A stretch of DNA of 64,000 bases from Saccostrea echinata. Lineage: Eukaryota. Each line of letters starts with the position of its first letter. Position 1 is the first letter of the stretch. Below the pieces are notes generated by a model. The model had not been told where the DNA came from and did no database searches. It worked only from the letters and a program-made list of their open reading frames with translations. This document shows, piece after piece, positions 13,201 to 47,550 of the stretch. Both the position numbers and the translations under genes were made by a program. The stretch spans positions 6,262,001 to 6,326,000 of the forward strand of contig NW_026889764.1 of assembly GCF_033153115.1 (NCBI RefSeq), written 5' to 3'.

Positions 13201-16185
13201 ATCCACGCATAACTATTAATACTCTGAGTAAACATCTTCAAGACACACGGCAAAATCGTATAAATTTGAAACTTTAAAATTCAGGCCAGATTTGATGAAG
13301 GTATCCCTGGCAAAACATAGAAATACCTTATACAGCACTGCTAAGTCTAAATGAAGACGGCGGGGCTTAATTAATTATGCAGGAAATATTTACTGTGACA
13401 TCAAAGAAAAAAAGCGATTCCTTACAATACCAGAAAATGAAATAATTTACGATTTTAAACTGTTTATAAGTAATCAACTACATTTAAAAAAGTACTGCCG
13501 GCTGCTTTCGTGAAATAAAGAGCATTACTTAATAAATACATAAAATACTTGGCCCAGTAAGTTGAAATTTAAACTAATAAAATGCAAATTCTATTTAAAG
13601 CAGCAGCACTTTCCAGAAACTACAAGCTTTGTAAAAACAATTTATCACTTAAATTTTTACGGTAATCTGAATCAGGATAAGCCCTTGCGATACTGAAATT
13701 TGTTTATGACCCCCATGCAGTACATATTGTATGCATTTATCATGCACTGACTGTCAAATAAGGTGACCAAACTAAATTCAATACAGACTGTGGTATACAT
13801 TCTTATTTCAATTAATATTTAAATCATGTGATAATATTATTGTTTTACAAAAATAAATTCAGTTTAAAAATGTATCTATTTCTGCATTTCTTTATTCCGT
13901 TGATTTCTTCCTTAACTTTCCTTCTTCCTAGCCGCGAGACTATGCACGTAGTTAACAAATATTAACTATAGTTTGATATAGTATCAACATTTTAATATTT
14001 TTATCAATGTTTTACCTAAGTGAATCTAAGTATTTTTACTTTCAATTTTAAATTGTTATATATTATTTGCATTTTTTTAAATATAAAAATAAAATATTAC
14101 CTGTATTCAAAAGTATATAACATATTGCTTTCACAAAATTGTATGGAATTTAAGAAATATTAATGCTCCAAATCTCAAAAATGTTCTAAAGCAAAGGGTC
14201 ATAGAAAACCAAAGGATCAGTTATTTTATTACTATAGTAAACTGTGGTTAACTACAGTAAACTATTGTTAACTAAAGTAACTTAACTATTGTTAATTAAG
14301 TAAACTGTTGTTAACTACAGTAAATTATTGTTAATTATAGTAAATTATTGTTAACTAATATTAACTTTGTTTGATATTATCCAAATCTTGATAGCTTAAT
14401 GTCTTTAAATGTTTTATCAATTTTATTTTTTATCGTTCTAATCTTCTTTGCTTCAACAGATTTTTATGAATATATGTTTTGAATATCCTCATTTGAATAT
14501 TATTCAACATTTTTACTTCATTGAATACTAGAATCTTTACAGAAAGCTGTATTACAAGTAATATCAAGACTCATAGAGAGATCATAACCGAATAGATATC
14601 ATTTGTTTTGTCTCTCAGGATTTAATCATAATTATCATTTGTTTACAGATATGTGGTCCTGCCCCCATTGTACCTTTAGCATCGAAGGATACAAGTCAAA
14701 ATGTTCAATCTGTGGGTCACAAAAAGGTAAGAATTTCCAGAAATTGGAAATGATGGATGTTAGCAAAGCAAAAAAAAAAAAAGAAAAAAAAACCTAAATG
14801 ACGTGACTATGATCATTAAACTTACTGAACAAGAGGATGCAGACTTATCCACTTTTGAAAATGTTAGCGTTGGATATATTTTCATTGGTAATTTTCAGGG
14901 TTCTGGTTTCGGGGGACACAGCGAAAGAAGACGGAGAGGGGGACGCTCGAAATACGGAAAAGCGACTGATGAGGAAGTGCGCATCGTCCTTCTGGGAAAA
15001 ACTGGAACGGGTAAAAGCGCTACCGGGAATACCATCTTGAATGACGATTTCTTTGACTCCACAACATCTGGCACTTCTGTGACATCGCGTTGCACCAGCA
15101 GACATGCCCATAGGTTTGGCAGGGACATTCAAGTTGTGGATACACCAGGGATATTTGATACCAACGTCCCAAATGATAGAGTTCAGAGAGAAATTGTCAA
15201 ATGTATCGGAATCACCGCCCCGGGTCCACACTGTTTTCTTCTTGTCTTCGGACTTTCCCGTTTTACGCAAGAAGAAGAGGAAAGCGTTAACCACTTTGTC
15301 AGTTACTTTGGAAGGAAGGTTTTTCGACATTTCGTCATCCTCTTTACAAGAAAAGATGATCTGGATCACCACAGCTTGACATTGGATGATCACATTCGAA
15401 CTGTTCCAAAGAGTCTGCAATCAATCATACAGGAGTGTAACAATCGCTGTATTGCCTTCAACAACCGAGCTACAGGGTCCGAACGACAAGATCAGGTAGA
15501 AGATCTTCTAGAGATGATCGACGACATTGTTCGCAAGAATCATGGAGATTGTTACACAAATGATATGTACTCTGAGGCTGAAAAGGTTATGAAACAAAGA
15601 CAATACCAAATAAAAGGGAAGAAAAGGGAACGACAACGTGAGCGAGAAAGAAAAGAAATCGAACGTGAAATAGAGCAGAAGTACAAACGCCAAATGAGCG
15701 GTCACTCTCGAAACCAAAATGCACTAGAAAATCGAGTTACAGAGCTGGAATCTAAACGAGACTACTATATGAGTCGGTCTTCAGAACTGAACAAGGAGAT
15801 CCATGAGCTCGAGGACGAGATAGAAAACGAAAGAAGACAACATGGTTCTCCTAGCTCCCATCTTTTAAAGAAACTCAGGAATTTAGAAGACGAGCGTACT
15901 AGATTGGGATCCGGAAAAGAGAAGGAAATGGAGGGGGAGATAGAAGATCTCAGACAAGAGCTCAAACGCATGCACAAGCACTCAAAAAAAATGACAAAGG
16001 AGAAAGACAGAATGTATCAAGAAAAGCTGGAAGAGCATGACCGGAGGTTTAGAGAGATGGAGAATGCACGTCACGAGGTAAGGCAGGAAGTAGAGACTGG
16101 TTCCGGTAATGTGGGAGAGGCTCTTCTTGGTGGTATGATGGTCATAGGGAAGCTAATATGGAAAGGAATACAGATGATCTTTTAA
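10249..16185 (+). CDS. GIMAP: GIMAP/AIG1-family GTPase paralogue 1 with N-terminal RanBP2-type zinc-finger exons (exons 10249-10252, 11106-11207, 14649-14726, ~14899-16185); possible frameshift at the exon 3/4 junction
   Basis: G1 GKTGTGKS, G3 DTPG, conserved box GPHCFLLV..SRFT, G4 TRKD, then a coiled coil and hydrophobic C-terminus. Upstream exons encode WLCNGCTHSD..CVQC and WSCPHCTFSI..CSIC. The acceptor reads cag|GGTTCT versus cag|GTTCT in paralogue 2. Confidence 0.85.
11765..12450 (+). mobile_element. Helentron/HINE-type non-autonomous element with ~79-bp internal repeats (in GIMAP1 intron 2)
   Basis: aacaagatgtgtttgtgaaaca start, internal aaggtca-rich tandem units, (acag)n microsatellite and a terminal hairpin. 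An inverted relative lies at 25093-26250. Confidence 0.75.
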
Positions 16186-27060: not shown

Positions 27061-28609
27061 TTTTTGTTATTTGCACCCCTCTTTTTAAGTGAAAGAAGTA
27101 CTTAAATTTGATAGCACAGGTGGTGACACTGTTTGAATATTATTTGAACATTTTTTTCATTGAAAATAATATTTTTGATGATCATTTGAGTGAGTGTGTG
27201 TGAATCTTTGGACTACCATGATAATTCACTGCTGAATTTATTCGTTTTGGCCTCAGACTGGTACTCCCTTACGTTCAGACATCTTAGGGATTGCAGATAT
27301 ACCTTGGTAGCCTTACGTGAAGTTTCACATCCAAGTACGTGTGTACGATAATCACTTTGTAGTTGTTCGATTTCTGTTTGAAGCGACTCATTTTTTGACT
27401 TGAGATTAGTAATAATTCGTCTGAGATTCTGGATCATTTTTGTACCACCTAATTGAACTTTTTTCTAACTATAAGTTAGCTTCTCTTTGCAGAAGTGTTT
27501 GAATGGTGGAGCGCATTTCAATTACCCAATTTTTTGGAAAATCGTTTTGTTCATGTTTAGATTAATCAAATACATTAGACAAAAGAAAGCATCATCATTA
27601 CAAAATATATACATACAAAGTCAAACAGTCTCTGGCATATTTTACTACTCTCGAACTACGTTTGGAAGATTTCCTCAATGTTAAATTATCTGAAGGACAC
27701 CTTTCTATTTCTTTGGCCTTTTAACAAAGGGCATCGCTATAGTCTATAACTAAATTACACCTCTTTAACCGAAAGAGATAAACGAAAGAGTGAAATATGG
27801 AGATAACGAACAGTAATCAAGCTTAAAAGTCCATTGAAACAATACAAAACAGGAGAAAAGTCTCCGGAAATTTTTTTAAAAAGTTGAGGAACGAGGGTAT
27901 GGACTTGTGCGTTTTATGTTTGCATTCATACACGCACGGTAAAGCAGCCAATCAGAATCATCCTAAATATTTCATAACGTAATGAACAACTGCGCGGCGA
28001 ACGAGAATCGAACCTGGGCCTCCCAATCAGAGAGAAAGTTTTACCACTAGGCTACCGTTACTGGTGACGAATGAAGAAAAAGTTTTACACCACTCCTACA
28101 ACTCAAATTTCATTGAAAACGACAATGGCAAAAAGTATTCTAACACTCAACCATTTATAAACAATAGACTCAAATTAATGTCATTGTAAATGCTGATTTT
28201 CCTAAAAAGTAAAGATAAAGTAAATTCATTGTCTTTTCTGGGAAAGGGAAACTTATTTTTGTCTAATTCTTCCCTCCAAAGAACACATGCAACGGAATTT
28301 GATGATTACTAATATTTTGTTAAATGAAATTGGGAAGATTATAGGCAAACGAACTTATTAAAATAATTTTAATGATTTGCAAGTATAAAATAAAGAGTTG
28401 ATTTTTACTTGTCAAGGATTTTCCCCATTTTTTCCTGTACATTAGATAAACTCAGTTTGGCTGGTTTATCCTATTTAGCGAGGAAGGAAGTGAACACAAC
28501 AGAGAAATACAAAAATACCATTCTCAAGAGCTAGGTTTAGAATACGGAAAAGCATTGAAGAGGAAAGCCAATATTGTTTTGTAGCGAATAAACTTGAAAA
28601 GTTACTGGA

Positions 28610-30544
28610 ATGGGTAAGTTTTTAAGTCCATTTCTTGATGTACTTCACTTTTCATCGGAAATTTCAGGTTTAATTAAGCATTACCTCTAAAATAGATATA
28701 CCTTATTTTTGCTTGCAAGGTAGGAAGACTCTAGGTATACAGTAATTATATTTAATCATTTTCATTGCATATATCATCAGGCTGGCATAAAACATATTCT
28801 TGGTATACCCGGCAGAAAAATTGTCTCTATGAATATGAGGAGAGGTACATCTTAAAAAAACTGTAATAATCTACCCAACAGGAAACATAAAAAGGAGTCG
28901 TTTTCTTTTAAAATATTAGATATTAGACAATTGTGTATACATGTATGTTCATTTTTTAGATAAAAGTATTTTTATGTAAAACAGAACATAAACCCACTTT
29001 ATGTGATGTAACAAAAATGTATTCATATTTCAGATTTTTTTTATCCTTAGTAAACTATAAATTCGTTTTCGAAAATTTGAACACTTGAAATGTGCCTTTT
29101 TGTTTTGCACATTCAAAGTATATGCCTGGATTTAACAGATTACTTTCATTAGAGTTAAACACTGGCATTTTTGGATTTTTACGTCTTTCACGATTTGTTC
29201 ATTATTTCATAAACGAATCCTATAGGTTTTGATAGATATATATTATTGACAATTTTGTATGTATAAAATTTTTTAATCATTTTGCATGGCAATTATTCTA
29301 CTAGTAAGTTACTCAACTATAAAGTTGATGGAACTGATCCTTTTGATTGTCAATAAAATATGTCCAAAACAAGGATTATTTAGGTCTGCCAAAAAAAAAT
29401 TATCGCAATTCTTCGAATTTCTTTAAAAAGAACTTTTCTAGTATTTGTTGTTTTTTTTTATTTCTATGAGGAGAAATCTAATAAAGTTTTAAAAAATCAG
29501 AGAATCTTATGTAAATTAGTTATCGGTATAATACCGTTATATGTACATTTTTAATTTTTACATTTTTTTTTAAAGATACATATTTAATTTACAAGATCAT
29601 TTAATCCTAAAATGCCATAAACCCAGTTTTCAGGGACATGCTTAACTTGTTACAGAAAGAATCTATGCGTTGTTTTATTATTATTTCAGCCTCAAAATAC
29701 TGGCTGTGCAATGGCTGTACACACTCCAATGAACATAGCCGTAAGAAATGTGTGCAGTGCGGGAGCAAGAATGGTCCCAGAGGTGACAATGGTAATACAT
29801 ATAATTATACATAATTGATAAATTTGTCAGATAATTTAGTGATTTCAAAGCCAAATTACAGGCTGCAGGCATTGCTTAATCTAATGACCTCCTAAGTATT
29901 ATAACAAATGTTTGGAAAACTGGATTATAAAGAATATTAAAGCTATCATTGTTTTATTTGGAAAAAACTATGCAAACAATTGAGATCTGAACAACTAAGA
30001 AAAATTTGTGACAATCAAATTACATGCATATATATTAGCAACCTGCGAAATAGTTACATGTATAAAGCAAGTACCAAAAGTGGACAAAAATCTATTTTGA
30101 GACCAACACATGACACGAGGATTTATCTAAACAACACGAGGAAATTTTTCATCGAAACCGGCGCATAACTAAGGACGTAATGTTTCAAACTCTGAGTAAA
30201 CATCTCCAAGAAACACGACAAAATCGTATAATTTTGACACTACTAATGTACTTTCGTTTAAAATTCACTCCAGACTTTCTTTGGAAGTTATCTAAACATT
30301 GATTTGATGAGGGTATCCCTAACAAAAACAACTATAGTAAACTATATTGTACTGTTAATTATAGTTCACTACAGTATCAAAGTTCGTACTATTAGAATAG
30401 AAAATCAAAGTTTTACTTATCTAACGATTACGAATCTAAGTATTATAACTTTGAATTTCAAATTGTTATATATTATTTTCTCCGATTATTACATGCCAAT
30501 TTTTATCCCCTCGTAACGAAGTTGGAGGGGATACAGTAATGTGC

Positions 30545-30588
<44 letters not shown>

Positions 30589-33500
30589 AACGGCAGTCTC
30601 GAAAACTATAATTTATTTCGGGGTCGATGTGCTGATGCTCCGCTTTGCGGTGCCCTTGTTTATATTAAAATGAAATATTACATCTATACAAAATGTATTA
30701 AGAAATTATTTTTAAGATTGTCCCCATAGTATGAAATTTAAGAGATAACAAGGTTCTACATCTCAGAAGATTTTCTAGAGTTCAGTGTCATAGTAAATCA
30801 AAGGATTAAGTATTCACTAAAGTACACTATAATTAACTACAGTAAACTGTAGTTGCATGTAACTATTGTTGACTACAGTAAACATTTTTTAGATAAGGAA
30901 GTTTTGTTTGGTATTAACCAAAAATTGATGATTTGATATCTTTAATTTTTGATTTTTAAAATTTATCTATATATTTATTCATTCATTTTTTGAAAACTTT
31001 ATTCTTTATTTCTTACCCCTCTTATCTTCTTTGATTCAACAGATATTATGTACATATAATTATGTTTTTAAATAACCTTATTTGAATATTATTCAACATC
31101 CTTATTTCACTAAAAACTGGAATTGATTTTTTACAGATAGCTACCGGTATATTACAAGCAATATCAAGACTTATAGGGAGATCAATACCTAATAGGTACC
31201 ATTTCTCTCGTGATTTAATCATAACTATCGTTTGTTTACAGACATGTGGGCATGTCCCCAATGCACCTTTAGCAACGAAGGATATAAGTCAAAATGTTCA
31301 GCATGTGGATCACACAAAGGTAAGAATTTTCAAAAATTAAAAATGATAGACTTTACTTCTCTTCATGTTAGCATAACAAAATAAATCTACAACTGACAGA
31401 AGCATAATCATCAAACTTATTGAAAGAGAGGACGCGGATGATATTTACTTTTGAAAAATGCTAACATCGGATTGAAAAGCAAAACTATATGTACATAGTA
31501 CACATCTTGATTACAAGTAAAACGTATGTATTTGTTTGTTCGTTTGTTGTTTAACTTCCCTCAGAGAAATTTTTACTCATATTGAGACGCCACCACTTGT
31601 CTGTAGAGGGCTGCAAATTTAGATCTGTACTCGGCATTTAGGGCCTTTGAGCAGTGCGGGATGATCTTTTTACTGCCAGCACCTACTGCGACACGAGACC
31701 TCGGTTCATACGGTCTCATCATCCGAAAGAAAGGTCTCCATAGTCCGCAGTGGGATTCGAACCCACGTCGTAAGGATCAACTCCTTACTTTGCGACCTCA
31801 GAGCAAACGCTCTAGCCACTGCAAGAGCTCGTTCCGTGATCGGAAGGTCGTGTGTTCGAATCACGGCCGCGGCTGACTTAAGTCGATAAAAAATTAGGTA
31901 GCAACTCTTCGCCAAGGGATTTGAAGTGAAAGTTGCGACTCTTTCGGATGAGTCCTTAAAAACCGAGGTCTCGTGTCACAGTAGACGTTGGCACGATAAA
32001 ATAAATCTCACTGCTCAATGACCCTGAGTGCCGAGTAAAGGTCTAAATTTGAAGCCCTTCACGGTATATGGTAAGATCTCTATATTAGTGAAAATTCTCG
32101 AATGGGATGTAAAACGACATGAAATATATGGAGATTACAAACAAGCTCAAAAGTCCATTAAATATTACAAAATAGGAGCAGAGCAAACACCGACCTCCAA
32201 AACATCAGAGGTGAGATCCGGTGCCATGAAGGAGTGAGCATCTCCTGCCGACCGGTCACACCCGCCTTCTGCTCCTTGTCAAGATCGGGAAATAACGGAA
32301 AAATCCGTCGACAATTCAGTGTGTATATAATGGCCTAACAATTAGTATGAAAAACGTCAGTCAGCATTTGACTCAATGATAAATTGTATTTGCTGACAAG
32401 GTCATTGTATCGACCAAAGAACTTACGAAATGATGACTTTAAACAGACTGCTGATATTCTTTCATCAACTTGTTTGTCAATAATTTACCTCGTTTTAGAA
32501 ATTGTACATACGTAGAACATGCTCTTGCGTATCGAATCAACTGAGAGACATAAACCCCGTATAACATACAATCAATCAAACAGTCTAACCACTGCGCCAC
32601 GCGGGCGACTGTATATATTTGTTTTTTGAAAGTAGAGTATATCAACTAATGTCAATCAGTTATTTTTTATTTTCATTGATATTTTTCAGGTTCTGGTGGC
32701 GGGGGTCACAGCGCAAGAGGTCGAGGAGGGGGGCGATCGAAATACGGAAAAGTGACTGATGATGAGGTGCGCATCGTCCTTTTAGGAAAAACCGGAACTG
32801 GAAAAAGCGCCACCGGAAATACAATCTTAAATGGTGATTTCTTTGATTCCACAACGTCTGGCTCTTCTGTGACATCGCGTTGCACCAGCAGACATGCCGA
32901 AAGGTTTGGCAGGGATATTCAAGTAGTAGATACACCAGGGATATTTGATACCAATATCCCAAATGATAGAGTTCAGAGAGAAATTGTCAAATGTATTGGA
33001 ATCACAGCCCCAGGTCCACACTGCTTTCTTCTTGTCCTCGGACTTTCCCGGTTTACACAGGAAGAAGAGGAAAGCGTTGATCACTTTGTCAATTACTTTG
33101 GAAATAAAGTTTTTCGACATTTCATCATTCTCTTCACCAGAAAAGATGATCTGGATCACCACGGCTTGACATTGGACGATCACATTCGAACTGTTCCTCA
33201 AAGTCTGAAATCAATCATTCGGAAGTGTGACAATCGCTGTATTGCCTTTAACAACCGAGCTACAGGGCCCGAACGACAAGATCAAGTAGAGGATCTTCTA
33301 GAGATGATAGACGACATTGTTCGGCAGAATCATGGAGATTGTTACACAAACGACATGTACTCTGAGGCTGAAAAGGTTATGAAACAAAGACAATACCAAA
33401 TAGAGAAGAAAAGGGAACGACAGCGTGAGCGAGAAAGAAAAGAAATCGAACGTGAAATAGAGCAGAAATACAAACATCAGATAAGCGGTCACTCTAGAAA

Positions 33501-33972
33501 CCAAAATGCTCTAGAAAACCGAGTTGCAGAGCTGGAATCTAAACGAGACTACTATATGAGTCGGTCATCAGATTTGAACAGGGAGATCCATGAACTCGAG
33601 GACGAGATAGAATACGAAAGAAGGCAACATGGTTCTCCTAGCTCCCATCTTTTAAAGAAACTCAGGAATTTAGAAGACGAGCGTACTAGATTGGGATCTG
33701 GAAAAGAGAAGGAAATGGAGAGGGAAATAGAAGATCTCAGAGTAGAGCTCAAGCGCATGCACAAGCACTCCAAAAAGATGGCAAAGGAGAAAGACAGAAT
33801 GTACCAAGAAAAGCTGGAAGAGCATGACCGGAGGTTTAGAGAGATGGAGAATGCACGTCACGAGGTAAGGCAGGAAGTAGAAACTGGTTCCGGAAATGTG
33901 GGAGAGGCTCTTCTTGGTGGTATAATGACCATAGGAAAGCTAATATGGAAAGGAATACAGATGATGATTTAA
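28610..33972 (+). CDS. GIMAP: GIMAP/AIG1-family GTPase paralogue 2, intact 488 aa: 2x RanBP2/NZF zinc finger - RG linker - AIG1 GTPase - coiled coil - amphipathic tail (exons 28610-28613, 29690-29791, 31242-31319, 32690-33972)
   Basis: All phase-1 GT..AG junctions join in frame: MASKYWLCNGCTHSNEHSRKKCVQCGSKNGPRGDNDMWACPQCTFSNEGYKSKCSACGSHKGSGGGGHSARGRGGGRSKYGKVTDDEVRIVLLGKTGTGKS... Confidence 0.9.
31530..32115. mobile_element. Two tRNA-derived SINE copies in inverted (head-to-head) orientation
   Basis: B-box gggattcgaaccc (minus copy) and gtgttcgaatc (plus copy); the bodies are mutually reverse-complementary. Further fragments at ~22590-22770 and ~37585-37680. Confidence 0.7.
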
Positions 33973-35464
33973 TATTTGTGCACTTTACTTTGACAGTTGC
34001 ACTCAAAATCTTTCCTGTTTTGTTTGTTTGTTTTTGGGAGGGGGATTTGGTTTTGAGAAATCGCATGGGACTACATATTTTTTTTAAGAGCGAAAAGTGT
34101 TTTATTCAATTGTTACTTTACATTCGAATTGTACATTTTAAACTTGTAGATTAACTGTAAAATGTTCTGATTTCAAGATGTTTAAAATGTTCATCGTAGC
34201 AATCTCACAGGCGTGGTGGACGAGGTCGCGGTAGAGGAAGGTCACGTAGAAGCCATATTAACCACGAAATTCCACCTGGTTAGTTCTGGATGCTGACAGT
34301 CTTGTTTTCTATTGTTTGAAATATACAATGAAACTAAATAAATTATACAATTACTTGCATTGATTTGTGTTATCTGCTCCATTTGTCACAAACTTTATTT
34401 GTACCTATTAAAACTTGAAAAAAGAGAAATTTTGAAATAGATTGATTTATTGACCTTGACACCTGACCTGCTTATATAATTCATTTGTATTCCAAATTAT
34501 CATTATCATAATATCTTGCTAGGTAGTATATCTTTTAAGGAAGGTTTTGCGTTTAAGCATGTGCAATGTTTGCCAAAATATATACTTTAATTTAATCCTG
34601 TCCCATTCAAGATTTCTTTGCTGTAAACGGACACCACTTTGCATGAACTTAAAGACATACACGCTATATAAACGCGACTTTTTAAGGAAACAAAATGATT
34701 AAATGATTTGAGAAACATGATATGTAATAAAAATAATACTTTCCATAAAGTTTTACTAAATAAGTCGTTGTAATTACTGAACAATTAAGCAAAATCAGGA
34801 ATTAAGAAAGGAGTCTTTTCAAGAATATTGATGAAGGAAGTGCGTAAACAGAATATAGATACGCATGTCCGCAAGAAATCAAGGATGAGGAAGTACGTTG
34901 CATTTTGACTACAATTATGAATAAGAGGTTAATATCTGCCATTACAGAGTAGATGGTTAATACTGGATGTTTTAAAATATAAGTATCTTTAAGCATTAGA
35001 CGTGTGTAATCTATATCAAACGTTATTTGTATACTAAACGGCCTAACTCGTTTTCTGTTTATCAATCTAAAAGTAGCGACGGTGTCACATGATGCATTAA
35101 TTTAAAGAGAGGCATTACTTTCCTGGCAGGAAAATAAATAATTATAATTTGAGACCTTTATAACACGTTAATTTTCAGTTGTGTAATTTACAGTATTTTT
35201 GTAGCTTTATTTGGTAAGCAAAATATATAAATTTCAGACTTTATTTTTAACTGACGCAAGTTATAGCGTTTATATCTTTAACATTCCATATCATTTTTTG
35301 TAGCAAAGACATAATTTTTAAACGATTTCAAAGTGTCATGTCCCAGCAATTGTGTCCCTGGGAAAAGAAGTGTCTTAAATCTCTTTTTATTGAAAACAAA
35401 ATTAAAATTTCACTAGTTTTAGCATTGACACGAATTCTGACGGATAAACAGTCGTAATAATATC

Positions 35465-35506
<42 letters not shown>

Positions 35507-36932
35507 TATCCAATAGAGTTTCAAATCAAATTACCAAATGATTGTTTACAGAATTACGTAGATTTTTTTATATATATACTTTTTTTAATCCATTTGAAAT
35601 CTACAACATTCATCCCCTATAACACATATGAAATCTTTTTAAAAGGCGGAAGAATACACAATAGGAACTAAAATACTTTTAATACACTAGGAACATAAGA
35701 ATGTATATAAATGTAGTTTTGGCTCAAAGGCAATTTAATTGAAAAAAAAAAAAACAGTTTACCTATTGAATTGTTGTAAGAGTATAAAATTCATTTTATA
35801 TTAAATATTCATTTTTACGCCAAAAAGGCTCTTACCACACCTGCTCTGAAAAATTTATTACAAGATAAAAGGAAATAATCATTTATGAAGAGAGAAAATT
35901 AGAGAATGTAAATATAAGCATTGAATCTTTATTTTTGGGTGTCATTGGTCGTATAACAGCACCTGTCCGTGCCGGAAATATTTAATTTACGATCGACAAC
36001 ATCCAAACATAAGAATTCGATGCTTACGGTCATATATGACTTATTTTTTTATAAGTTCAGACTGATTAAAATTAGAAAGATCTTTCTATTTGTTTTATTA
36101 CTTTATATAAAGATAGGACTTTCCTGTAAATTACACAATTTAAATCAATCTCGTTTAAAGGTATTAGACATTCAAAACAATTACCTACATATATTTATTT
36201 ACCGACTTCGCATTTAGTTAACAGACCCAGTTTAAAATCAATTTAACGATGGAATTGTGAGGTTCAAGTTCAAAATCGGGGAAAATTTTGATTTGAACGT
36301 AAATAACATATATCGTGTTTATCTACACTCAATCTCGTATTTTTATTTTTTAGCTCAGATACGCCAAATATAGCTTTAAATGAAACTTAAACTGACTACA
36401 TCAATGTACAATGTATTTGTTAATTTTCGGGGAGAATATTTATATGCATCTTTGGCAATGCTGTAGCAATTCTTCATATTGCAATATTAACCACTCATGA
36501 TCTAGAAAAGACTTTAAGCTAGGAATTCACGATTTTCTAAATCTAACCAGTTTTATGCAGAAAATAGAATATTTATAGCATTTGACGTGTACGGAACATG
36601 ATATAAACTAAGATGCTTAATATTTGGACGGAGTCCAATTGTCCAGTTGTGTCTTGTATTGCCAGAAAAGACAAGGAAATTACCAGAAAAATTAATTGAC
36701 ACAAGGAAACAACATTCATGAAATAATTATTTCCAGTATTATAAAACATACTAGTTAGAGAATGTTTTATTTAAAATTTGCAACTCAATAAATCAAAATT
36801 CCTCCGACTTCATTGTATAAATTAATGATTCTCTAATCATGTGTGCCAGTAGTGATTTCAACGGAGGTAGGATTTTCATAGATTTATTGTTTAATATACC
36901 TTTTTGACGGTTGGTTCTAAAAGTCAGTGTCA

Positions 36933-37075
36933 NNNNNNNNNNNNNNNNNNNNNNNNNNNNNNNNNNNNNNNNNNNNNNNNNNNNNNNNNNNNNNNNNNNN
37001 NNNNNNNNNNNNNNNNNNNNNNNNNNNNNNNNNNNNNNNNNNNNNNNNNNNNNNNNNNNNNNNNNNNNNNNNNNN
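36933..37075. other. Assembly gap
   Basis: Run of N. Confidence 0.99.
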
Positions 37076-38387
37076 TTGACAGTTTAGTCTGTATAAAAAT
37101 TTATGCACGATGTTCTATTTATGTTGTAGTAAATTATCAGTGAATTGATTTAACGATTTGGCAGGGAATTTGGAAGAAGATATCTTTCTCATAAGATTAG
37201 TTTAATTTTATCAATAAATTGGTTTTTATAGGATGAACTATCTGAATTTGCTATACTCTTTAAGCATCCTAGGTTAAAGTTTTTAGAACACATTTATTTT
37301 CCAAGAAAAATGCTGTATACATGTACTTGCATAATTCGACCAAAATTACAAGGACGATGCATCTAGCAATACCTGCTATCATTCAAGCGTCGGATGCTAC
37401 ATTTGATCTACGTTTCCTGGATGATAAACTAGTTTAGACATTTCGGTGCAGAAACCTAACCCAATCAGTTTTTAACCAACCTTGCACGATAGATATATGA
37501 CCATATTTGGAAGCTTACAATTTGGTCATACTTTGGATGCTGCGTGTGACCTGTATTATTTGGATGATCAGATTCAAGTCCCTCATTGCTCAATGGCCCT
37601 GAATGCCGAGTATAGGTCTAAATTTGAAGCCTTTCGCCGATTTATGATGATGTCTCTATATGACTGAAACTTTCTCGAATTTATTCAATCAATCAATATT
37701 TTGTTAGTGGTTACCATGGCTGTTGATTAATGATAAAGTAATTTCATTTATAATTTAATGAATGTAAGGTCATCCACTAATACTTTGATGCAGACATATG
37801 CATGGTCTATGTTTTCATGATTAAAGTTCTAAGCACATTCGTTTTTTTTTCATCTTATAAGATTTTACATTATCAATATAGATTACATTCGGCAAAAAAA
37901 AAAAGGGGGGGTAATGTTTCCTTTTTAAACACATATCGCAACGTAGTTTATTTTCTTATACTCTCTATATAATTGAAGGACATTTGTATTACTTTGATAA
38001 TGGCAAATGACGCTGAAAGTTTTAGGAAATATCAACTAAAACTATATTCATTTAGGTATATTTCTCTTTGAATAACTCAAGGATTTTCATCGTTGGATAT
38101 CTATTTAAAACCAATATTTTTATATACTGATATTTGTTTTTGTCTAAGAACATCTGATGGTACTACCAGTTTAAATTAAAAATACATGTATCTTGAAAAA
38201 TCATCAATGGGCAAGGTACTTTAAAAGGTACGTTGCGCATGACCCTAAGAACTAAAATGTATAAACAACGAAGTAGATGAAATGTTCGTAAAGATTCTAA
38301 TTCATAGCCAAAATCATAGATTACAATTTTCCATGGAAACTAATAAAGAACTCTGTGCCGTCCACTCAGATCATTTTCAGAATGCTA

Positions 38388-38459
38388 CATCGTCGGAACC
38401 CACGGGTTTTCTCTCCGTTACACTACATTCAACGAGAAAACCCGTGGGTTCCGACGATG
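38388..38459. mobile_element. 72-bp minimal MITE with 26-bp perfect TIRs and 9-bp TSD
   Basis: catcgtcggaacccacgggttttctc / gagaaaacccgtgggttccgacgatg, flanked by agaatgcta on both sides. Confidence 0.85.
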
Positions 38460-38550
38460 AGAATGCTAGTACATGTATACAACTGTGTTTCTCGTGAATA
38501 CTTTACAAATAAGTCTGAACACGAAATGCAGTTATATTAACTATTCAAAG

Positions 38551-39836
38551 GATATGGTGGAGGCCACAAACATCCAAAGAGAGGAAGAGGGCGCTCCAAA
38601 TACGGAAAAGGTGTAGATAATGAAGTACGAATTGTTCTTCTCGGAAAGACCGGAACAGGAAAAAGCGCCACCGGAAACACTATTTTAAACGGTGATTTCT
38701 TTGATTCTTCGACTTCTGGCTCTTCTGTAACGTCACTTTGTACTAGCAAACATACCCAACGGTTTGGCAAGGATATTCAAGTTGTTGATACACCAGGAAT
38801 ATTTGATACCAATGCCCCAAATGATGTTGTTCAGAGAGAAATTGCAAAATGTATCGGAATCACTGCTCCTGGTCCGCACTGTTTTCTGCTTGTCCTCGGA
38901 CTTTCCCGCTTTACACAGGAGGAAGAGGAGAGCATTGGTCACTTTGTTACATACTTTGGAAAGAAAGTATTTCGATATTTCATCATACTCTTTACCAGAA
39001 AAGATGACCTAGATCACCACGGCTTGACATTGGACGATCACATCAAAAGTGTTCCGCCAAGTCTGAAATCAATCATTCGAAAGTGTGACAATCGCTGTAT
39101 TGCCTTCAACAACCGAGCCACAAGCCCCGAACTGCATGACCAAGTAGAAGATCTTCTAGAAATGATAGACGAAATCATGCGCCAGAATCAAGGAGAATTT
39201 TACAGCGATGAGTTGTACACAGAGGCAGAGAAAGTGATGAAACACCGACAATATCAAATTGAGAAAGAGAGAGAACGGGAGAAAGAGCGAGAGAGAAAGA
39301 ATATTGAAAGAGAATTAGAGCAGAAATATAAAAGTCACATGGGAGCTCATATCCAGAACCAAAGCGCTCTAGAGCACCGCGTCGCAGAGCTTGAGTCCAG
39401 AAAACACTACCAATCTAGCCGAACACCTATACTTCAGCGAGAAATAAGTGAGCTAAAGGAGCAGATTGATTACGAGAGACGCCAGTATGGGAAACCAAGT
39501 TCCAACCTTTTGACCAAACTCAAACAACTTGAAGACGAGAGGGTAAGCATGGGGTCTATGACAGATAATGCAATGGAGGAGGAGATAAATGACCTCCGTA
39601 AAGAACTAAAACATATGAAAAAACACTCCAAGGAAATGGAGGAGGAAAGGGACCGATCTATCCAAGAAAAGCTACAGGAGCATGAGCAGAAGTTCAGTCA
39701 GTTGGAAAATCCTCGTCAGGAGGTTAGAAAGGAAGTAGAAAGTGGTTCTGGACTCGTGAATGAGGTTTTGATGGGCGCTATAGTGTCTGTTGGAAAGGTT
39801 GCATGGAAAGGAGTAAAATGGCTATTCAATTTCTAA
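38551..39836 (+). CDS. GIMAP: GIMAP/AIG1-family GTPase paralogue 3, terminal exon (upstream exons not located)
   Basis: Acceptor ttcaaag|GATATGG. Open frame GYGGGHKHPKRGRGRSKYGKGVDNEVRIVLLGKTGTGKS..DTPG..TRKD is continuous with ORF 39024-39836. Confidence 0.88.
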
Positions 39837-41834: not shown

Positions 41835-44800
41835 TGTAACATTATACTATTATTATTATATTATTATACTACATTTAATGTCGGGTTCGTTGCCGACTTT
41901 GCGCGTGTGTCAGGCCGTTCGGGACAACGTCTGGACGTCTGTTAACGGCCTGACCACCGTGACGTTCGCAACGGCCAGATTAGATCAGTGCTTGCCTGAG
42001 ACAAGCTGCGAGTAGGTATCCACCATCCCCTAGACTTGTAATATTGTTAATTGTCACTTATTTATTTATTTCATTTAATAAACCTTTGTTAACCGTTATA
42101 AATGTTTTTCTCTCTGTAAATCACTGAATCTGGATTTATACATGGAAACGGACAGGTTTCCCGTTACATTTTTGGGGGCTCGTCCGGTGATTTACAGTTG
42201 AGAACATTTTTCGGTCTATTGTAAAAAAAAAAAAAAAGAAAGAACCAAACGTATCAACAATTTATGTTCAGAATTTTAGGTGGTATCTAAAGAAAAACAT
42301 TTTTTTTCTACATTGTATTTTTATGGTTTAAATGGCGTCAACACTTTTCAGTAATCTGTCCAACAAATTTAGGCAATGGTTTAGCTTTCATGAACCGGAA
42401 GCAAGGGCTAGTACTAGTGAAGAAAGGAGCGGATCTCACGGAAATAAAAATATTTCCAACAAAACTCAGGAAATTCAAAATCAGCACAATTTCTGGGATG
42501 CGGACATAAGATCAGATAGACCTACATGTATTCAAAGACCAATTGTTAACAATGACATACCTGTTACATATTTCGTGGAAAATAAAGAAGTTCATGCTTC
42601 TTGTAATGTTAGGCCTAACGCTAGTGTACCACACCGACAAGAAAACCATGGGGTTTTTCAAACAAGTCTGGAAAACGGTCACAATGTAGGGTTTGAACGA
42701 AATGTTCAGAACAATTTTGACTCGTATCTGAGTGATAACATGTCCAATCCATATGAAAAACTGTCACAAAGTAGCTCAGCTTCACAGCATGTTTTCAATC
42801 GAGGCGATCACGTGACACAAAACGGGTACTGGGGTACAGAAAGGGGAGATAAAAACGACCCATATTACTCTGGTCGAACCAGGGGAAATTATTTTGCACA
42901 TAGTACACCTATGACAAATATTCAAAATCGAAATGTGGTGTCGAATTTTGAAACAAATAAAACTCCTTATCGGGAGGTTACAAACAAAATGCAATATTTT
43001 GAGCCAGAAAATAAAATTGAAAGTGAAAGAGAAAATTACTTTTTCTCAAGATGCGGACAAGATAATGTCACTTCTCCGTATCCGAGATGGTCAGATGGGG
43101 ATCAAAATTCATTAAATTACCCCTCCCCAAATGTTCACTACAGTTCAGGGTCGAGAGTAGAAAATGATTATTTCGCTGAAAATAAATACGGCGCGCAGTC
43201 GGTCTATCCATTAGACTCGGAGGTTCGAACACCTTACCGGAATTATTTTGATCGGAATGATCAAAGACCTCCTGTTCAACATTCTTTTGAACAAATGAAA
43301 AACATGCCCAACAATGTAAAAAATTTTCAGAATTCTGAATGTCGTTTGATAAATGATAGTTTTAGCAAACAAATGTTTCCAACAGGTGCGCAAAAGTTCG
43401 AAGGCCCTGATCAATTGAATGAAAATAATTACTTTCTAGATCAAAGACGTAGACAAAGAAAAGAAAAAGAACCTGATCTTTTTACCGGAGAAAACGTGGA
43501 ATGGGCAGATTATATTTGCCAGTTTGAACAGGTGTCACTCTGGAACAAATGGTCAGGAAGCGAAAAAGCAGCACAACTCGCAATGAGTTTACGAAGTGCT
43601 GCTCAGCGAATTCTCGGTGATCTGTCTCGTGATCAGTTAACAAACTATGAATCTCTAAAATCAGTTCTAACGCAAAGATTCAATCCCTTAGAGCGCGAGA
43701 CTGCTTTCCGCTGCGAGTTCCGGAACGGAAACGACTTTCAGGAGAGACAGCAGCTGACTATGGCTACTCTTTAAAAAGACTAGCTACTCGCGCATTTCCG
43801 ACAATACCAGTTTCACTTCGTGAGAGTATTGTTCTTGAACAGTACATTAACGGACTAGGTAGTCAAGAAATAAGAAGACATGTGCAATTTGCACACCCTA
43901 CTACGTTAGACAGGGCTATATCTCTTGCACCAAAACATACTGAAATTCAGTCTGTCCGAGCGCTGAAAGCAACAAACGAGTCTAATAATCTTGAAAATAA
44001 AAGACCTTCAGAATTAGAAAAATCGCTTGCTCTGATGCAAAAATCTATTCAAAAATAACAGAAAGAGACAACCAAAATGGCAGAATAATTTCTCGCCGTA
44101 CGCAAGATGAAACTCGAAAGAAAATTGTCAAATGCTATAACTGTAACCAAACAGGCCACATTAGTAAATTTTGCCCAAAGTCACAAACACCCATACTTGC
44201 ATCAAGTCCTAGAAAGGTTACATTTTCGGATTCTGTCTCAAAATCTGGTGATTTAAACTAAATGGGGCTGAGCTCGGGACCAAAAGCCCAGCCCACAACG
44301 ATTTAACTACTGAAAATTTGACAAGGCCCTCTGTAAGGTTGTCGGCAATCTCTAAGAGTTGTTGGTTTTCTGTTGTTGAGATTGGTGGTTTGAGCGCAAA
44401 CATGCTCATTGATACCGGCTCATCGGTGTCTCTGTTATCAAAGGAGATATATGAGACTTTGAGTTTCAGACCGATCTTAACAAAAGTCGCAGACAAGTTA
44501 ACCACAGCTGACGGTGAACCCCTGCGTGTTTGTGGGAAATCGAATTTCCCGCTCCGAATGAATGGAGTAAATTTTAATTACCCATTGCAATTATAATTGC
44601 AGAATTGGGTGATCTTCATGGTATATTGGGATTAGATTTTTTGTCTGACAACGAAATTGTAGTGGATACTTGTAGAGGAATTTTGATGTCCTCTCACTTT
44701 CAAATTCAGTTATGCTGGGAAAATAGTTTAAATCATACGTGTGCAAGAGTTCAGATTTCTGAAAATGTTCGAATACCACCTAGGTCTGAGATGTTTATTA

Positions 44801-46538
44801 CTGGCAATGTCAAAGGTAATATTTCGGATGATGTGACGTGCATCTTAGAGCCAGATAGGGACCAGACAGGACATGATGTCCTCATACCTAAATCAATTGT
44901 CAACATCACAAAATCATCTGTGGTGTTTTCTGTCCTTAATCCTACTGACAATGATATACATTTGAAAAAAAATAAATGCATAGCTAGTATACAAGCTGTA
45001 GATTATATCATAGACAATGATGATTGCAAAGGTTCAGGAGTAGAAAATAAAGATATGTCTTTACAATCAAGTGTACCAGATAATTTGCAATCGCTGCTAG
45101 AAAATGTGTCAAATAAACTTTTATCTCTTGAGAAAAACGAGTTGAAACATTTTGTTTTACAATATTTTGACGTTTTTGTCGGATCTGACGGAAACTTAGG
45201 CCGAACTGACCTCACTGCTCATAAAATTGACACAGGGGGCGCGAAACCGATTAAGCTACCCCCAAGACGACTTCCAATATCTCAGCGAGATGTTGCTGAG
45301 CACGAAATAGAAAATATGTTACAGAAAGGAGTAATAGAACCTATTAATTCTCCATGGGCTTCGCCCATTGTTCTAGTAAAGAAAAAGGACGGCTCAACGC
45401 GTTTTGCGTAGATTATCGGCGCTTAAATGCTGTCACTGTGAAAGACGCATATCCACTGCCTAGAGTGGATGAATCTTTTGATTCACTAGCCGGTGCCAAA
45501 TATTTCTGCACACTCGACTTAGCCAGCGGATACTGGCAAGTGGTCATGCATCCCGATGATAGACAAAAGACAGCCTTTGCTAGTCATAAGGGATTATATG
45601 AATTTACGGTAATGCCTTTCGGACTGTCAAATAGTCCGGCAACGTTCGAACGATTAATGGAGATTGTACTTTGCGGACTCCAGTGGGAGAAATGTCTAGT
45701 CTATTAAGACGATGTCATTGTTTTTGGAAAAACTTTTCAAGAAACTTTAGAGAATTTAAGATCAGTTTTCGACCGATTTAGGAGCGCAAAGTTAAAACTG
45801 AAACCTAAGAAATGCGTTCTTTTCAAAGACGAAGTATCATTTCTCGGTCACGTAGTCTCAGCTAACGGCATTCAGTGTGATCCGACGAAAATTATCGCGA
45901 TTAAGGAATGGCCGGTATCCGAAAACATTTCGGATGTCAGAAGTTTTCTGGGACTTGCGTCGTATTATCGTAAATTCATATACAATTTCTCATCTATCGC
46001 TTACCCTTTAACAAGACTAACACAGAAAAATAAACCATTTGAATGGACCGCAGAAAGTGAAAATGCTTTCACTACTCTTAAAAAGTTACTGACAGATACC
46101 CCGATACTATCATATCCTGACATCAAGGAAACGTTTATTCTTGATACCGATGCTAGCGTATTTGGCGTTGGTGCAGTCTTATCGCAGATACAAAACGGTC
46201 AAGAAAAGGTTATAGCGTACGGAAGTAAAAGACTGTCCAAATCTCAAAGCAAATACTGCACTACGTATCGCGAACTTTTTCATTAAACACATTTTCTCCT
46301 TCGTACCGACCATTCGTCTCTCCTTTGGCTGAAGAATTTTAAAGAACCGGAAGGGGTGTTGGCCCGATGGCTTTCCTTTCTAGAGACGTACGATTTCGAG
46401 ATTAAACATAGGAAAGGTTCTCTGCATGGAAATGCAGACGGTTTATCTAAACGCCCCTCGCGCCGATGTAAGAGATTTGATTGTAACCAATGTTACGGTA
46501 CCTTGCCAAGCAGCAAAGACAATATCTCACAATACCAA
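41835..46538 (+). mobile_element. Truncated, decayed Ty3/Gypsy LTR retrotransposon (5' LTR, PBS, gag, protease, RT, RNase H; no integrase or 3' LTR)
   Basis: LTR end gttaca at 42168 (start tgtaac at 41835 or 41247). PBS TGGGGGCTCGTCCGG at 42173-42187. gag with CYNC..GH....C knuckle, LIDTGS protease, SPWASPIVLV/LDLASGYWQ/MPFGL RT with a stop in Y*DD (45705), TDAS RNase H; several frameshifts. Confidence 0.93.
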
Positions 46539-47550
46539 CAGGCGCGTAGCCAGAATAGAAATGATGTGTACGCAGAGAACGGCAGGGGTTGGGTGGGGTG
46601 CGTGAGTCTTGAAACACCCCCCCCCCCCCCAGTGTTTAAGGGCTCTGGTCAGGCACGTTATGTAGCTTTTGCCAGCCAGGAAAAAATTACAACTTTAAAA
46701 ATTTTGTCAAGCAAGGACGAAAAAGGAAGATTGTCAAAATTCGAAGTCCCATTTCTTGTGTGTGTGTGTTTGTTGAAGGGGGGAGGGGTGTCGATCATCT
46801 TTCACAAACCAAATTTTTATTAATACATTACCAAATTACCATGATTTAACAATGGTGCAACAAACAGTGGGGGTCCACCCTTTCAATGTACATTTCTTCA
46901 ATAGTAAAAGGTTACGTTTTGGGAATAAATAGTGGGGAGGCTCCCCTGATACTACGTGCCTGCTGGTGAGGGCCCAGAAGCTCCGGAGTTTTACCAAATA
47001 TTTCATTCATTTTCTTGAAATATAAAAATTATGCCATTTAGTTTTTGTTTAGGAAATAAAAGACATAGTTATATTCATTGTTTTAACGAAAATTAATATT
47101 CCATGGAAACTCATTGTACATATAATTGAGGCTAAAATTTAACCGATTAACTGGTATATAATCATTCTTAACGTTTAAAAACATACAAAATTTTAATTAT
47201 GAACAAAAAATATCGTATTTTAAATCATACTAGTAGATCATAGCATTCAACGATGCGGCTGAAATTTATTTTTTCAAAGATCTTTAAAAAAAAATATCAA
47301 TGTATGGTAGAACAATGACAAAATAATGAATGATTAAATAAAGGATTTCAGATTTTATCATACAGCCACGATAATTTAAAATTTAAATCGACACAGTATG
47401 ACACAGAATAATTTGAAACACGAATATTTTTTGGATGGTATTGAGATTTTTTTTCTCCGAATAATTCTCTCTTTTTTCTTATCTTTTTTTTCTTTTCTGA
47501 AAATGATGTGTACGCACTTGCGTATTTGCGTATAGGCAGCTACGCGCCTG
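46539..47550. mobile_element. MITE with CAGGCGCGTAGC TIRs and 5-bp TSD (accaa), containing a nested relative at 46650-46962 (TSD ctggt)
   Basis: TIRs caggcgcgtagc / gctacgcgcctg; nested caggcacgt / acgtgcctg; direct 5-bp flanks visible. Confidence 0.8.

Follow-up and report, generated by a model that had tools for sequence, protein, structure and literature searches.

A molluscan GIMAP GTPase with tandem RanBP2-type zinc fingers, a putative ubiquitin-directed scaffold on membranes

GIMAPs, NZF proteins, and related designs

The closest described relatives of the oyster protein considered here are human GIMAP7, GIMAP4, GIMAP5, and GIMAP2. In structural alignments, its G domain is 37–44% identical to theirs with an rmsd of 1.6–2.4 Å, and it shares the G1–G5 motifs, the conserved box, and the following helices. 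The human proteins lack N-terminal fingers, and PF00641 appears in none of the vertebrate GIMAPs listed, in agreement with what a first-pass annotation of this DNA had stated for mammals. The oyster protein also differs in that its stalk of helices is far longer, its tail is amphipathic where theirs is transmembrane, and one isoform has an RG-rich tail. Salmonella and Pseudomonas become coated with GIMAP6, which also binds GABARAPL2 (PMC9111091); the GIMAP6-GABARAPL2-GIMAP7 system offers a parallel of a GIMAP recruited to intracellular bacteria with a link to autophagy. An ATG8-family protein directs GIMAP6 to its targets, whereas the oyster GIMAP would use a built-in, putative ubiquitin-binding finger; ubiquitin is unmentioned in the searched portions of PMC9111091. 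According to a second paper (PMC12558955), GIMAP4/5/6 promote the fusion of lysosomes with parasite vacuoles.

NZF fingers are described by four Cys, a Trp, an Asn, the pair T-(F/Y), and a third residue that is typically hydrophobic (PMC11372445). The NZFs of HOIP, NPL4, TAB2/3, HOIL-1L, TRABID, and CAPN15 share the four Cys, Trp, Asn, and TF with the second oyster finger. Nearest in design is CAPN15, with tandem N-terminal NZFs before an enzyme, which guide it to ubiquitinated membrane proteins (PMC12805371). The oyster protein differs from these in the Ala at its third signature position, in the TH of its first finger, and in the fusion to a GTPase; its sequence gives no indication of a linkage preference. 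Other N-terminal fusions are described in invertebrates: in Biomphalaria (death, CARD, kinase, ARM, or Hint modules) and lancelet (CARD-AIG1-Hint), sensor or adaptor modules lie N-terminal to AIG1 in tandem, fast-evolving arrays. The papers on these multidomain proteins name no zinc finger or RanBP fusion.

GBPs and IRGs combine a GTPase, a long helical stalk, and a C-terminal membrane anchor, a design which the oyster protein resembles, as it does their immune setting. However, they belong to other GTPase families. GIMAP structures rank first in the structure search, GBP1 (14% identical) does not come up until rank 44, and no GBP- or IRG-type G domain gave a Pfam match in the 488-aa oyster protein. 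The fold is of the GIMAP7/2/5 kind, which lends no support to the proposal that it could remodel membranes in GBP/IRG fashion; membrane remodeling is not required by the evidence.

Gene structure, splicing, and paralogues

The gene was found in a 64-kb stretch of Saccostrea echinata DNA (the window). Four spliced exons encode the 488-aa protein, with an open frame confirmed across 28610–33972 on the + strand and the order two RanBP2-type fingers, RG linker, AIG1/GIMAP GTPase, coiled coil, and amphipathic tail (Table 1). All exons have GT-AG ends and phase 1 throughout. The first-pass annotation had joined the finger exons in frame onto the AIG1 exon, and the three joints (28612>29689, 29790>31241, and 31317>32688, each GT..AG) are indeed present in contigs of 4/4 runs, which are transcript assemblies from three samples and two studies whose RNA status is presumed, none being recorded as RNA. 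The spliced protein is identical to RefSeq XP_061179406.1 (P0001 in our protein collection); RefSeq already carries the gene model and its Pfam labels. The joint 28612>29689, whose shorter side spans 44–64 letters, places at least 40–60 nt of 5′ UTR upstream of 28610. In a 1,913-nt contig from run X1, the last exon and the 3′ end account for 1,672 letters, and the remaining 241 are compatible with the upstream exons. The longest contig ends at 34359, ~20 nt after an AATAAA signal.

A predicted alternative last exon swaps the amphipathic helix for an RG-rich tail of 27 residues, with indirect transcript support at this locus. RG-rich alternative tails of this kind are annotated in isoforms of three oyster genera.

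Table 1. Features of the finger-GIMAP gene and its paralogues in the window
Feature	Position	Strand	Basis
Exon 1 coding end (ATG+G)	28610..28613	+	Translation, joint 28612>29689
Exon 2, phase 1-1, finger 1 (TH...Q)	29690..29791	+	Contig joints, Pfam
Exon 3, phase 1-1, finger 2, NZF type (TF...A)	31242..31319	+	Contig joints, Pfam
Last exon of isoform 1, AIG1 exon	32690..33972	+	Contig joints, Pfam
Gly/Arg-rich linker	32690..32769	+	Disordered in model, pLDDT <50 at residues 64–83
AIG1/GIMAP GTPase with G1–G5 and conserved box (Arg182)	32770..33387	+	Pfam, structural alignment
Long charged helices, residues 283–445 (predicted coiled coil/hairpin)	33352..33840	+	Alignment-based model
Isoform 1 tail with an R-x-E-V-E-x-G motif and an amphipathic helix	33865..33972	+	Sequence analysis
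Alternative intron	33865–34199	+	Begins at isoform 1 tail
Alternative last exon, RG-rich tail (predicted)	34200..34283	+	In-frame GT-AG, orthologous annotated isoforms, indirect contig evidence
AATAAA signal	34337..34342	+	Position before longest contig's end
Paralogue 1	10249..16185	+	Exon layout like that of the finger-GIMAP gene
Paralogue 1 finger exons	11106–11207, 14649–14726	+	Sequence, Pfam
Paralogue 3	36839..39836	+	GTPase exon 38551–39836; likely first exon 36839–36866

Both finger exons recur in paralogue 1, as had been noted, but in decayed form. Asp replaces the invariant Asn in one, Ile replaces it in the other, the PF00641 scores (21.4 and 19.3 bits) fall below the cut-off of 27, and the homologous last acceptor carries one extra G, is out of frame, and reads into a stop. 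The extra G may be an assembly error. No contig in the four runs covers the finger exons and joints of paralogue 1, which says nothing on expression. Paralogue 3 has no finger exon in its readable sequence. Between paralogues 1 and 2 (2 being the finger-GIMAP gene), dN/dS is 0.09 for the finger exons and 0.11 for the G domain; the coiled-coil value, computed with a one-codon indel left unaligned, was dropped as invalid.

Protein features and their distribution among molluscs

The motif W-x-C-x2-C-x3-N-x6-C-x2-C, said in the first-pass annotation to be encoded twice, occurs in its strict form exactly twice in the six frames of the window. Both occurrences lie in the finger exons, which score 31.0 and 31.7 bits against PF00641, above the cut-off of 27. 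The W before the first Cys, the Asn between the pairs, and the four Cys are intact in both fingers; TF follows the second Cys in finger 2 only, finger 1 reading TH, with Gln at the third signature position. In finger 2, this third residue, located at the second CxxC, is Ala. A Nup153 finger also has Ala there, while solved NZFs have Ile (HOIP NZF1) or Met (NPL4). The ubiquitin-binding signature originally claimed for finger 2 therefore stands in its TF and is weaker than claimed in its third residue, the Ala appearing to be a weak variant. Overall, the identification of finger 2 as an NZF is supported, and it is a putative ubiquitin binder. A predicted complex of residues 1–66 with the oyster's own ubiquitin scored 0.01 in a run made without control folds, and was given no weight in either direction.

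The signature has been kept among bivalves, as 28 GTPase-proximal fingers, selected and intact, show: Thr is present in 28/28, Phe or Tyr in 27/28, and a hydrophobic third residue in 28/28, with the adjoining surface positions variable. The kept TF shows that a binding surface is conserved; it says nothing of a membrane or pathogen target. Ala occupies the third position in 10 of 12 GTPase-proximal fingers of the oyster/mussel lineage, and I, M, L, or V does so in scallop, abalone, and subfamily B fingers (see below). Abalone isoform X1 has two fingers in an equal layout, with finger 2 reading TY...I.

The AIG1 match is strong (241 bits, E 8e-72), and G1–G5 are all there as GKTGTGKS, a switch-I Thr, DTPG, TRKD, and AFNN. 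Between G3 and G4 lies the conserved box, PGPH...R182, whose Arg aligns with that of GIMAP7/4/5/2, is invariant across 34 aligned proteins, and is, we presume, an arginine finger. Residue 100 of GIMAP7 was set aside as a marker of activity, since L100Q raises activity twofold. Single-sequence folding was poor (pLDDT 57) and was replaced by an alignment-based model, which predicts helices at residues 283–375, 380–396, and 400–445. The coiled coil and amphipathic tail proposed earlier both hold up in these predictions: the tail of isoform 1 has a hydrophobic moment of 0.51, and its peak hydropathy of 1.12 is too low for a clear transmembrane helix. An amphipathic tail was found in 17/17 proteins measured (moment 0.43–0.71), and it is kept in abalone and both subfamilies. 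There was no acidic LIR-like motif outside the G domain of the oyster protein.

Four oyster genera, mussels, scallops, pearl oyster, and abalone all have the finger-GIMAP fusion, which, judging from these sequences, is old. A second finger-bearing subfamily (B) accounts for 4 of the 39 AIG1 loci fetched from the S. echinata genome and has orthologues in oysters, pearl oyster, and scallops; its fingers, such as that of XP_061187029.1, have the canonical pair TF or TY, and their third residue is I, V, L, or M. Linkers are RG/RGG-rich in oysters, basic in scallops, and acidic without RG in subfamily B. Fingers are lost or decayed in paralogues 1 and 3, P0184/5/7/8, P0128/9, and P0025, and an Ostrea isoform skips finger 2. 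Because fingers are often lost and were absent within ~8.5 kb upstream at 35 of the 39 other AIG1 loci fetched, ubiquitin sensing would be dispensable for GIMAP function generally. On the question of one or several origins, the data weakly rejected an exclusive clade made up of the finger-bearing rows and the oyster kin nested among them (p-AU 0.023) but did not reject one also including the finger-less L001/L002/L004/P0111 (p 0.16), in trees whose deep branches lack resolution. A SAM-like N-terminus, seen by eye in P0111 and two gastropod proteins, had no Pfam match. One scallop GIMAP carries tandem PARP14-type RRM domains in the N-terminal slot otherwise held by fingers.

In the literature searched, no description of a finger plus AIG1 architecture was found, nor any mention of the gene identifiers, and every score in a second Atlas search was <0.9. 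Three points, as read from the sequences, go beyond the first-pass annotation: the splice switch to an RG tail, a second subfamily of NZF-GIMAPs, and a range that spans molluscs.

Proposed mechanism and alternatives

Our preferred reading, to which we give slightly less than an even chance, is that the protein is a ubiquitin-directed GIMAP scaffold on membranes, assembling where ubiquitin and membrane coincide. Finger 2 would bind the Ile44 patch of ubiquitin, and would do so weakly, as measured NZF affinities are 4–350 µM. GTP-dependent dimerization of the G domain, together with the long helices, would cluster several fingers and provide avidity, and the C-terminal amphipathic helix would dock the assembly on the bilayer. 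On phagosomes, pathogen vacuoles, bacteria, or damaged organelles that carry ubiquitin, the protein could then act as a scaffold or tether and so promote lysosomal or autophagic clearance; this would parallel mammalian GIMAP4/5/6, which use other targeting means. Splicing to the RG-rich exon would remove the anchor, and the protein would be redirected to a compartment that is either soluble or rich in RNA. In favor of this reading are the splicing seen in all four runs, the NZF features of finger 2 and their conservation, the second finger-bearing subfamily, the low finger-exon dN/dS, the amphipathic tails, and the precedents of GIMAP6, GIMAP4/5/6, and CAPN15. Against it stand the Ala of the oyster/mussel lineage, the missing TF in finger 1, the frequent loss or decay of fingers, and the absence of an acidic LIR-like motif outside the G domain.

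A possible but more doubtful alternative is a signaling adaptor whose finger reads ubiquitin chains on signaling or cell-death complexes (IAP, TRAF, or LUBAC type), or a specific ubiquitinated partner, to control hemocyte survival without coating pathogens. Signaling adaptors make up most of the NZF relatives of finger 2 with solved structures (HOIP, TAB2/3, HOIL-1L, and TRABID), and CARD or death domains fill the N-terminal slot in other invertebrate GIMAPs (PMC7053062, PMC12373286). A study of bacterial challenge (PMC4133350) shows oyster GIMAP transcripts shifting with IAPs and proposes a role in apoptosis. Yet an adaptor role alone leaves the widely kept amphipathic tail unexplained, and the 488-aa protein has no death-fold domain.

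We consider it unlikely that the protein is directed mainly to RNA (viral RNA or stress granules) through finger 1 together with the RG-rich linker and alternative tail, with ubiquitin secondary. The RNA-binding fingers of RBM5 and RBM10 are the best solved matches of finger 1, and the RG-rich or basic linkers of oysters and scallops, the annotated RG-rich tails, and the scallop RRM protein are all consistent with this view. In sequence comparison, however, both fingers lack the aromatic and basic residues that directly follow the Asn in RBM5, RBM10, and ZRANB2: finger 1 has E-H-S-R and finger 2 E-G-Y-K, against F-R-K-R and F-K-R-R in RBM5/RBM10, so the RNA docking suggested earlier for the fingers finds no backing in finger 1. 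Finger 1 orthologues reading TF...V (Mytilus californianus) and TY...Q (one C. virginica copy) point to an NZF origin instead, and the subfamily B linkers are acidic and free of RG.

Still less probable is that the fingers regulate GTPase activity by binding a protein partner other than ubiquitin; this could be a small GTPase akin to Ran, a ubiquitin-like modifier, or the G domain of the same protein. The Ala at the third position fits such a partner, and a Nup153 two-finger construct tops the solved matches of finger 2, among which HOIP NZF1 and NPL4 also figure. LV in place of TF is the mark of Ran-binding fingers such as those of Nup153/RanBP2; the Nup153 fingers compared have LV or CV, as opposed to TH and TF in fingers 1 and 2, and in the orthologues from scallop, abalone, and subfamily B the TY/TF pair is complete and is accompanied by I, M, L, or V. 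That the fingers are functionless passengers is very improbable: symmetric phase-1 exons are prone to shuffling and several copies have decayed, but the low finger-exon dN/dS, the conservation of the motif over bivalve orders and one gastropod, and the constitutive inclusion of the finger exons in all four runs disfavor it.

Extending the ubiquitin-directed scaffold to the phylum, we tentatively put forward, as a speculative and rather doubtful proposal, that molluscs since at least the bivalve-gastropod split may have kept a family of self-targeting immune GTPases, with ubiquitin sensor, oligomerizing engine, and membrane anchor in one chain. These would coat ubiquitin-marked pathogens or vacuoles, and one splice event would switch them between two forms, one on membranes and the other RG-tailed and in RNA granules.

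The novelty of the architecture is limited in that N-terminal fusions are common among invertebrate AIG1 proteins. Nevertheless, how GIMAPs are targeted to membranes is largely open, and invertebrate GIMAPs are nearly without a known mechanism. Given a natural NZF-GIMAP fusion, a 30-residue peptide and a single double mutant would suffice to test a direct link between GIMAPs and ubiquitin, and the tail-swapping splice would allow the protein with its anchor to be compared with a natural form that lacks it. For farmed oysters, mussels, scallops, and abalone, these proteins are candidates for effectors of cell-autonomous immunity.

Structure and transcripts of the middle AIG1 gene

The window carries a tandem array of three AIG1 GTPase genes, all on the + strand. 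The four joined exons of the middle gene give an open frame of 488 aa with GT-AG ends and phase 1 joins, which bears out the first-pass proposal that the finger exons splice in frame onto the AIG1 exon. Each small exon passed the PF00641 cut-off alone, and the last exon scored 241 bits against the AIG1 profile. All three joints were present at the predicted ends in contigs of 4/4 transcript-assembly runs (3 samples, 2 studies), and although the RNA status of these runs is only the tool's guess, exact GT..AG joints fit spliced transcripts. In run X1, a 1913-nt contig placed 1672 letters on 32688-34359, and the remaining 241 fit the upstream exons. The protein (P0001) is RefSeq XP_061179406.1, "GTPase IMAP family member 4-like" of Saccostrea echinata; its gene model was thus already machine-annotated. 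Structure, splicing, motifs and conservation of the gene are established, and its fusion of a RanBP2-type, NZF-like finger module to a GIMAP is real, expressed and old.

In S. cucullata (X2), M. gigas (X3/X4), C. angulata (X3) and O. edulis (X1/X2), annotated isoforms depart from the last exon at a shared residue and run into an RG-rich end, for which the middle gene has in-frame splice sites. Run X2 has contig breaks at 33864 and 34198/34227. At 34217 the depth sums to 63.8, more than the two contigs listed account for (28.5 + 24.5), while 33886 and 34232 have a single contig each; this pattern fits a small junction contig. The 33864>34200 joint was absent among the rows listed (67 others are not among them), so that for this gene the RG-tail isoform is inferred. 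The retained, amphipathic-tail form appears directly in contigs. Such a tail-swapping splice of an NZF-GIMAP has apparently gone unremarked so far.

Both finger exons do recur in paralogue 1, as had been reported, but Asn is lost from both fingers. Since duplication, these exons show a dN/dS of 0.09 (G domain, 0.11), indicating purifying selection. One extra G at the last acceptor leads to a stop, and in-frame alternatives have poor pyrimidine tracts; this paralogue is either decaying or misassembled. Its RefSeq model, P0002, inserts 8 residues at the last junction, unexplained by GT-AG at homologous sites. Contigs of low depth show transcription of paralogue 3. Its first exon appears to be finger-free, the sole phase-1 candidate fitting the contig junction letters, with a short N stretch in the intron unreadable.

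Features of the window and further finger-bearing loci
Feature	Position	Strand	Remarks
Middle gene, exons	28610-28613, 29690-29791, 31242-31319, 32690-33972	+	exons 2 and 3 encode fingers 1 and 2
Middle gene, alternative tail	donor after 33864, acceptor 34199/34200	+	in-frame; then 27-residue RG-rich exon
Paralogue 1, RefSeq model P0002	14726-14900	+	site of unexplained insertion
Paralogue 3, putative first exon	36839-36866	+	
LTR-retrotransposon-like element	42332-46823	+	several broken frames; RT and RNase H matches
Multi-exon gene, exons	48848-52647	-	one exon with weak VWA_CoxE match, 25.5 bits, under cut-off
Gln/Gly/His/Pro-rich frame	1871-2653	+	hydrophobic start resembling signal peptide; no Pfam match
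Interspersed repeats in introns/flanks	11760-12410, 27790-27850, 31700-32590		very high contig depth drawn from elsewhere in transcript assemblies
L016-L019	G000 (S. echinata genome) C51:7.42 Mb; C29:27.97-28.00 Mb		four further NZF-GIMAP genes

Finger signatures and their distribution

PMC11372445 defines NZFs by four Cys, Trp, Asn, T-(F/Y) and, within the second CxxC, a residue that is typically hydrophobic; their affinities span 4-350 uM. The first-pass annotation had assigned finger 2 the ubiquitin-binding signature; its TF pair stands, but the third residue is Ala, whereas among its solved relatives HOIP NZF1 has Ile and NPL4 Met. A Nup153 finger, also a solved relative, shares the Ala but has LV in place of TF. 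Judged by its sequence, finger 2 probably binds ubiquitin. Finger 1, with TH and Gln at the signature positions, is probably a diverged NZF, since its orthologue reads TF...V in Mytilus californianus and, in one C. virginica copy, TY...Q.

Among GTPase-proximal fingers of 12 subfamily A proteins (the middle gene's type) and 16 of subfamily B (the L016-L019 type), Thr is present in 28/28, Phe/Tyr in 27/28 and a hydrophobic third residue in 28/28, a count that excludes decayed or finger-1-only proteins (P0002, P0006, P0011, P0025, P0097, P0128, P0129, P0184, P0185, P0187, P0188), P0163 (annotated start inside the finger) and near-duplicates. In a scallop branch of subfamily B (P0184, P0185, P0187, P0188), the four Cys are kept and Thr, Asn and the hydrophobic residue are lost together. 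Annotated isoforms skip finger 2 alone in Ostrea edulis (P0006 vs P0263) and abalone (P0328 vs P0329), possibly a second splice switch.

The S. echinata genome gave 56 AIG1 matches and 27 PF00641 matches at E <= 0.05. Six of the latter, including the two window fingers by which the window was selected, lie directly upstream of a same-strand AIG1, against 0.005 expected by chance (P = 5e-9, tandem copies collapsed to three clusters). Each of L016-L019 (4/39 fetched loci) carries a single canonical finger (TF...I, TY...V, TY...V, TY...L), an intron within AIG1 and a longer amphipathic tail. In trees, these loci cluster with orthologues from pearl oyster and scallops, separately from the window genes (SH-aLRT 99; smaller trees 82/72, 82/60). 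A single origin followed by losses could not be distinguished from repeated gains.

PF00641 was recorded on 6/120, 5/40 and 2/82 matches in three listings, all bivalve; that it appears on no vertebrate row among the matches listed agrees with the earlier claim that mammalian GIMAPs lack such fingers. By pattern scan, 34/231 collected proteins have a finger N-terminal to G1; carriers occur in Saccostrea, Magallana, Crassostrea, Ostrea, Mytilus, Pecten, Argopecten, Ylistrum, Mizuhopecten and Pinctada. A tail-only profile run against 1.84 billion representatives gave 26 matches at E <= 0.001; among the eight of these examined is an abalone (Haliotis rubra) GIMAP in which isoform X1 combines a pair of fingers (TL...V, TY...I) with a tail of this type. 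In the nearest Atlas cluster (score 0.97), 14% of the 64 members, which are mostly Mollusca, carry PF00641. These searches were anchored on mollusc sequences, and the range outside molluscs is not inferable from them. Beside these, a scallop GIMAP (P0311, Argopecten irradians XP_069138931.1) and its cluster have two PARP14-type RRM domains (PF23085, 104 bits) in the NZF slot and a tail of the same type, and P0111, P0220 and P0224 are GIMAPs with a helical N-terminal module, SAM-like by eye and without a Pfam match.

Predicted architecture and a proposed role

In a model of P0001 derived from a 34-sequence alignment (mean pLDDT 85, pTM 0.65), both fingers are predicted to fold; a disordered linker spanning residues 64-83 leads into the G domain, which is followed by three helices (283-375, 380-396, 400-445) and by short ones in the tail. 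Its closest structures are human GIMAP7, 2, 5, 1 and 4, then Toc34 and septins; GBP1 ranks 44. G1-G5 and the conserved-box Arg182 are all intact. With a moment of 0.51 (96th percentile within the protein; 0.43-0.71 in 17/17 proteins measured), the tail is amphipathic, and its hydrophobicity is too weak for a clear transmembrane helix.

GIMAP dimerisation is driven by GTP. In our proposed mechanism, finger 2 would bind ubiquitin weakly, G-domain dimers and the stalk would supply avidity and the tail would dock the protein on a membrane; together, these would therefore lead to assembly on ubiquitin-marked membranes. We hold this whole chain tentatively, at slightly short of an even chance. Related work offers precedents, with GIMAP6 coating intracellular bacteria and binding GABARAPL2 (PMC9111091), GIMAP4/5/6 promoting lysosome fusion with parasite vacuoles (PMC12558955) and CAPN15 reaching ubiquitinated cadherin via N-terminal NZFs (PMC12805371).

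Fusions of AIG1 with CARD, death, kinase, ARM and Hint domains are among those reported (PMC7053062, PMC8857920, PMC12373286), so a new module at the N terminus fits the pattern of this family. A role as a signalling or apoptosis adaptor is unlikely, though the best placed of the alternatives. That the protein is an RNA-directed GIMAP is quite improbable: RBM5/RBM10 RNA-binding fingers are the best matches of finger 1, but their post-Asn aromatic and basic residues are absent from it. We give slightly less credence still to a non-ubiquitin partner of the fingers, and hardly any to the finger exons being passengers.

We found no description of an NZF/RanBP2-GIMAP fusion in literature on GIMAP/AIG1 with zinc fingers, ubiquitin binding or bivalves, mostly at title and abstract level, though supplements may list the domain. 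By term search, "RanBP" and "finger" are absent from the main texts of the three fusion papers, and RanBP, PF00641, IPR001876 and zinc from six supplements of PMC7053062. L016-L019 are better first candidates than the middle gene for a ubiquitin-binding test.
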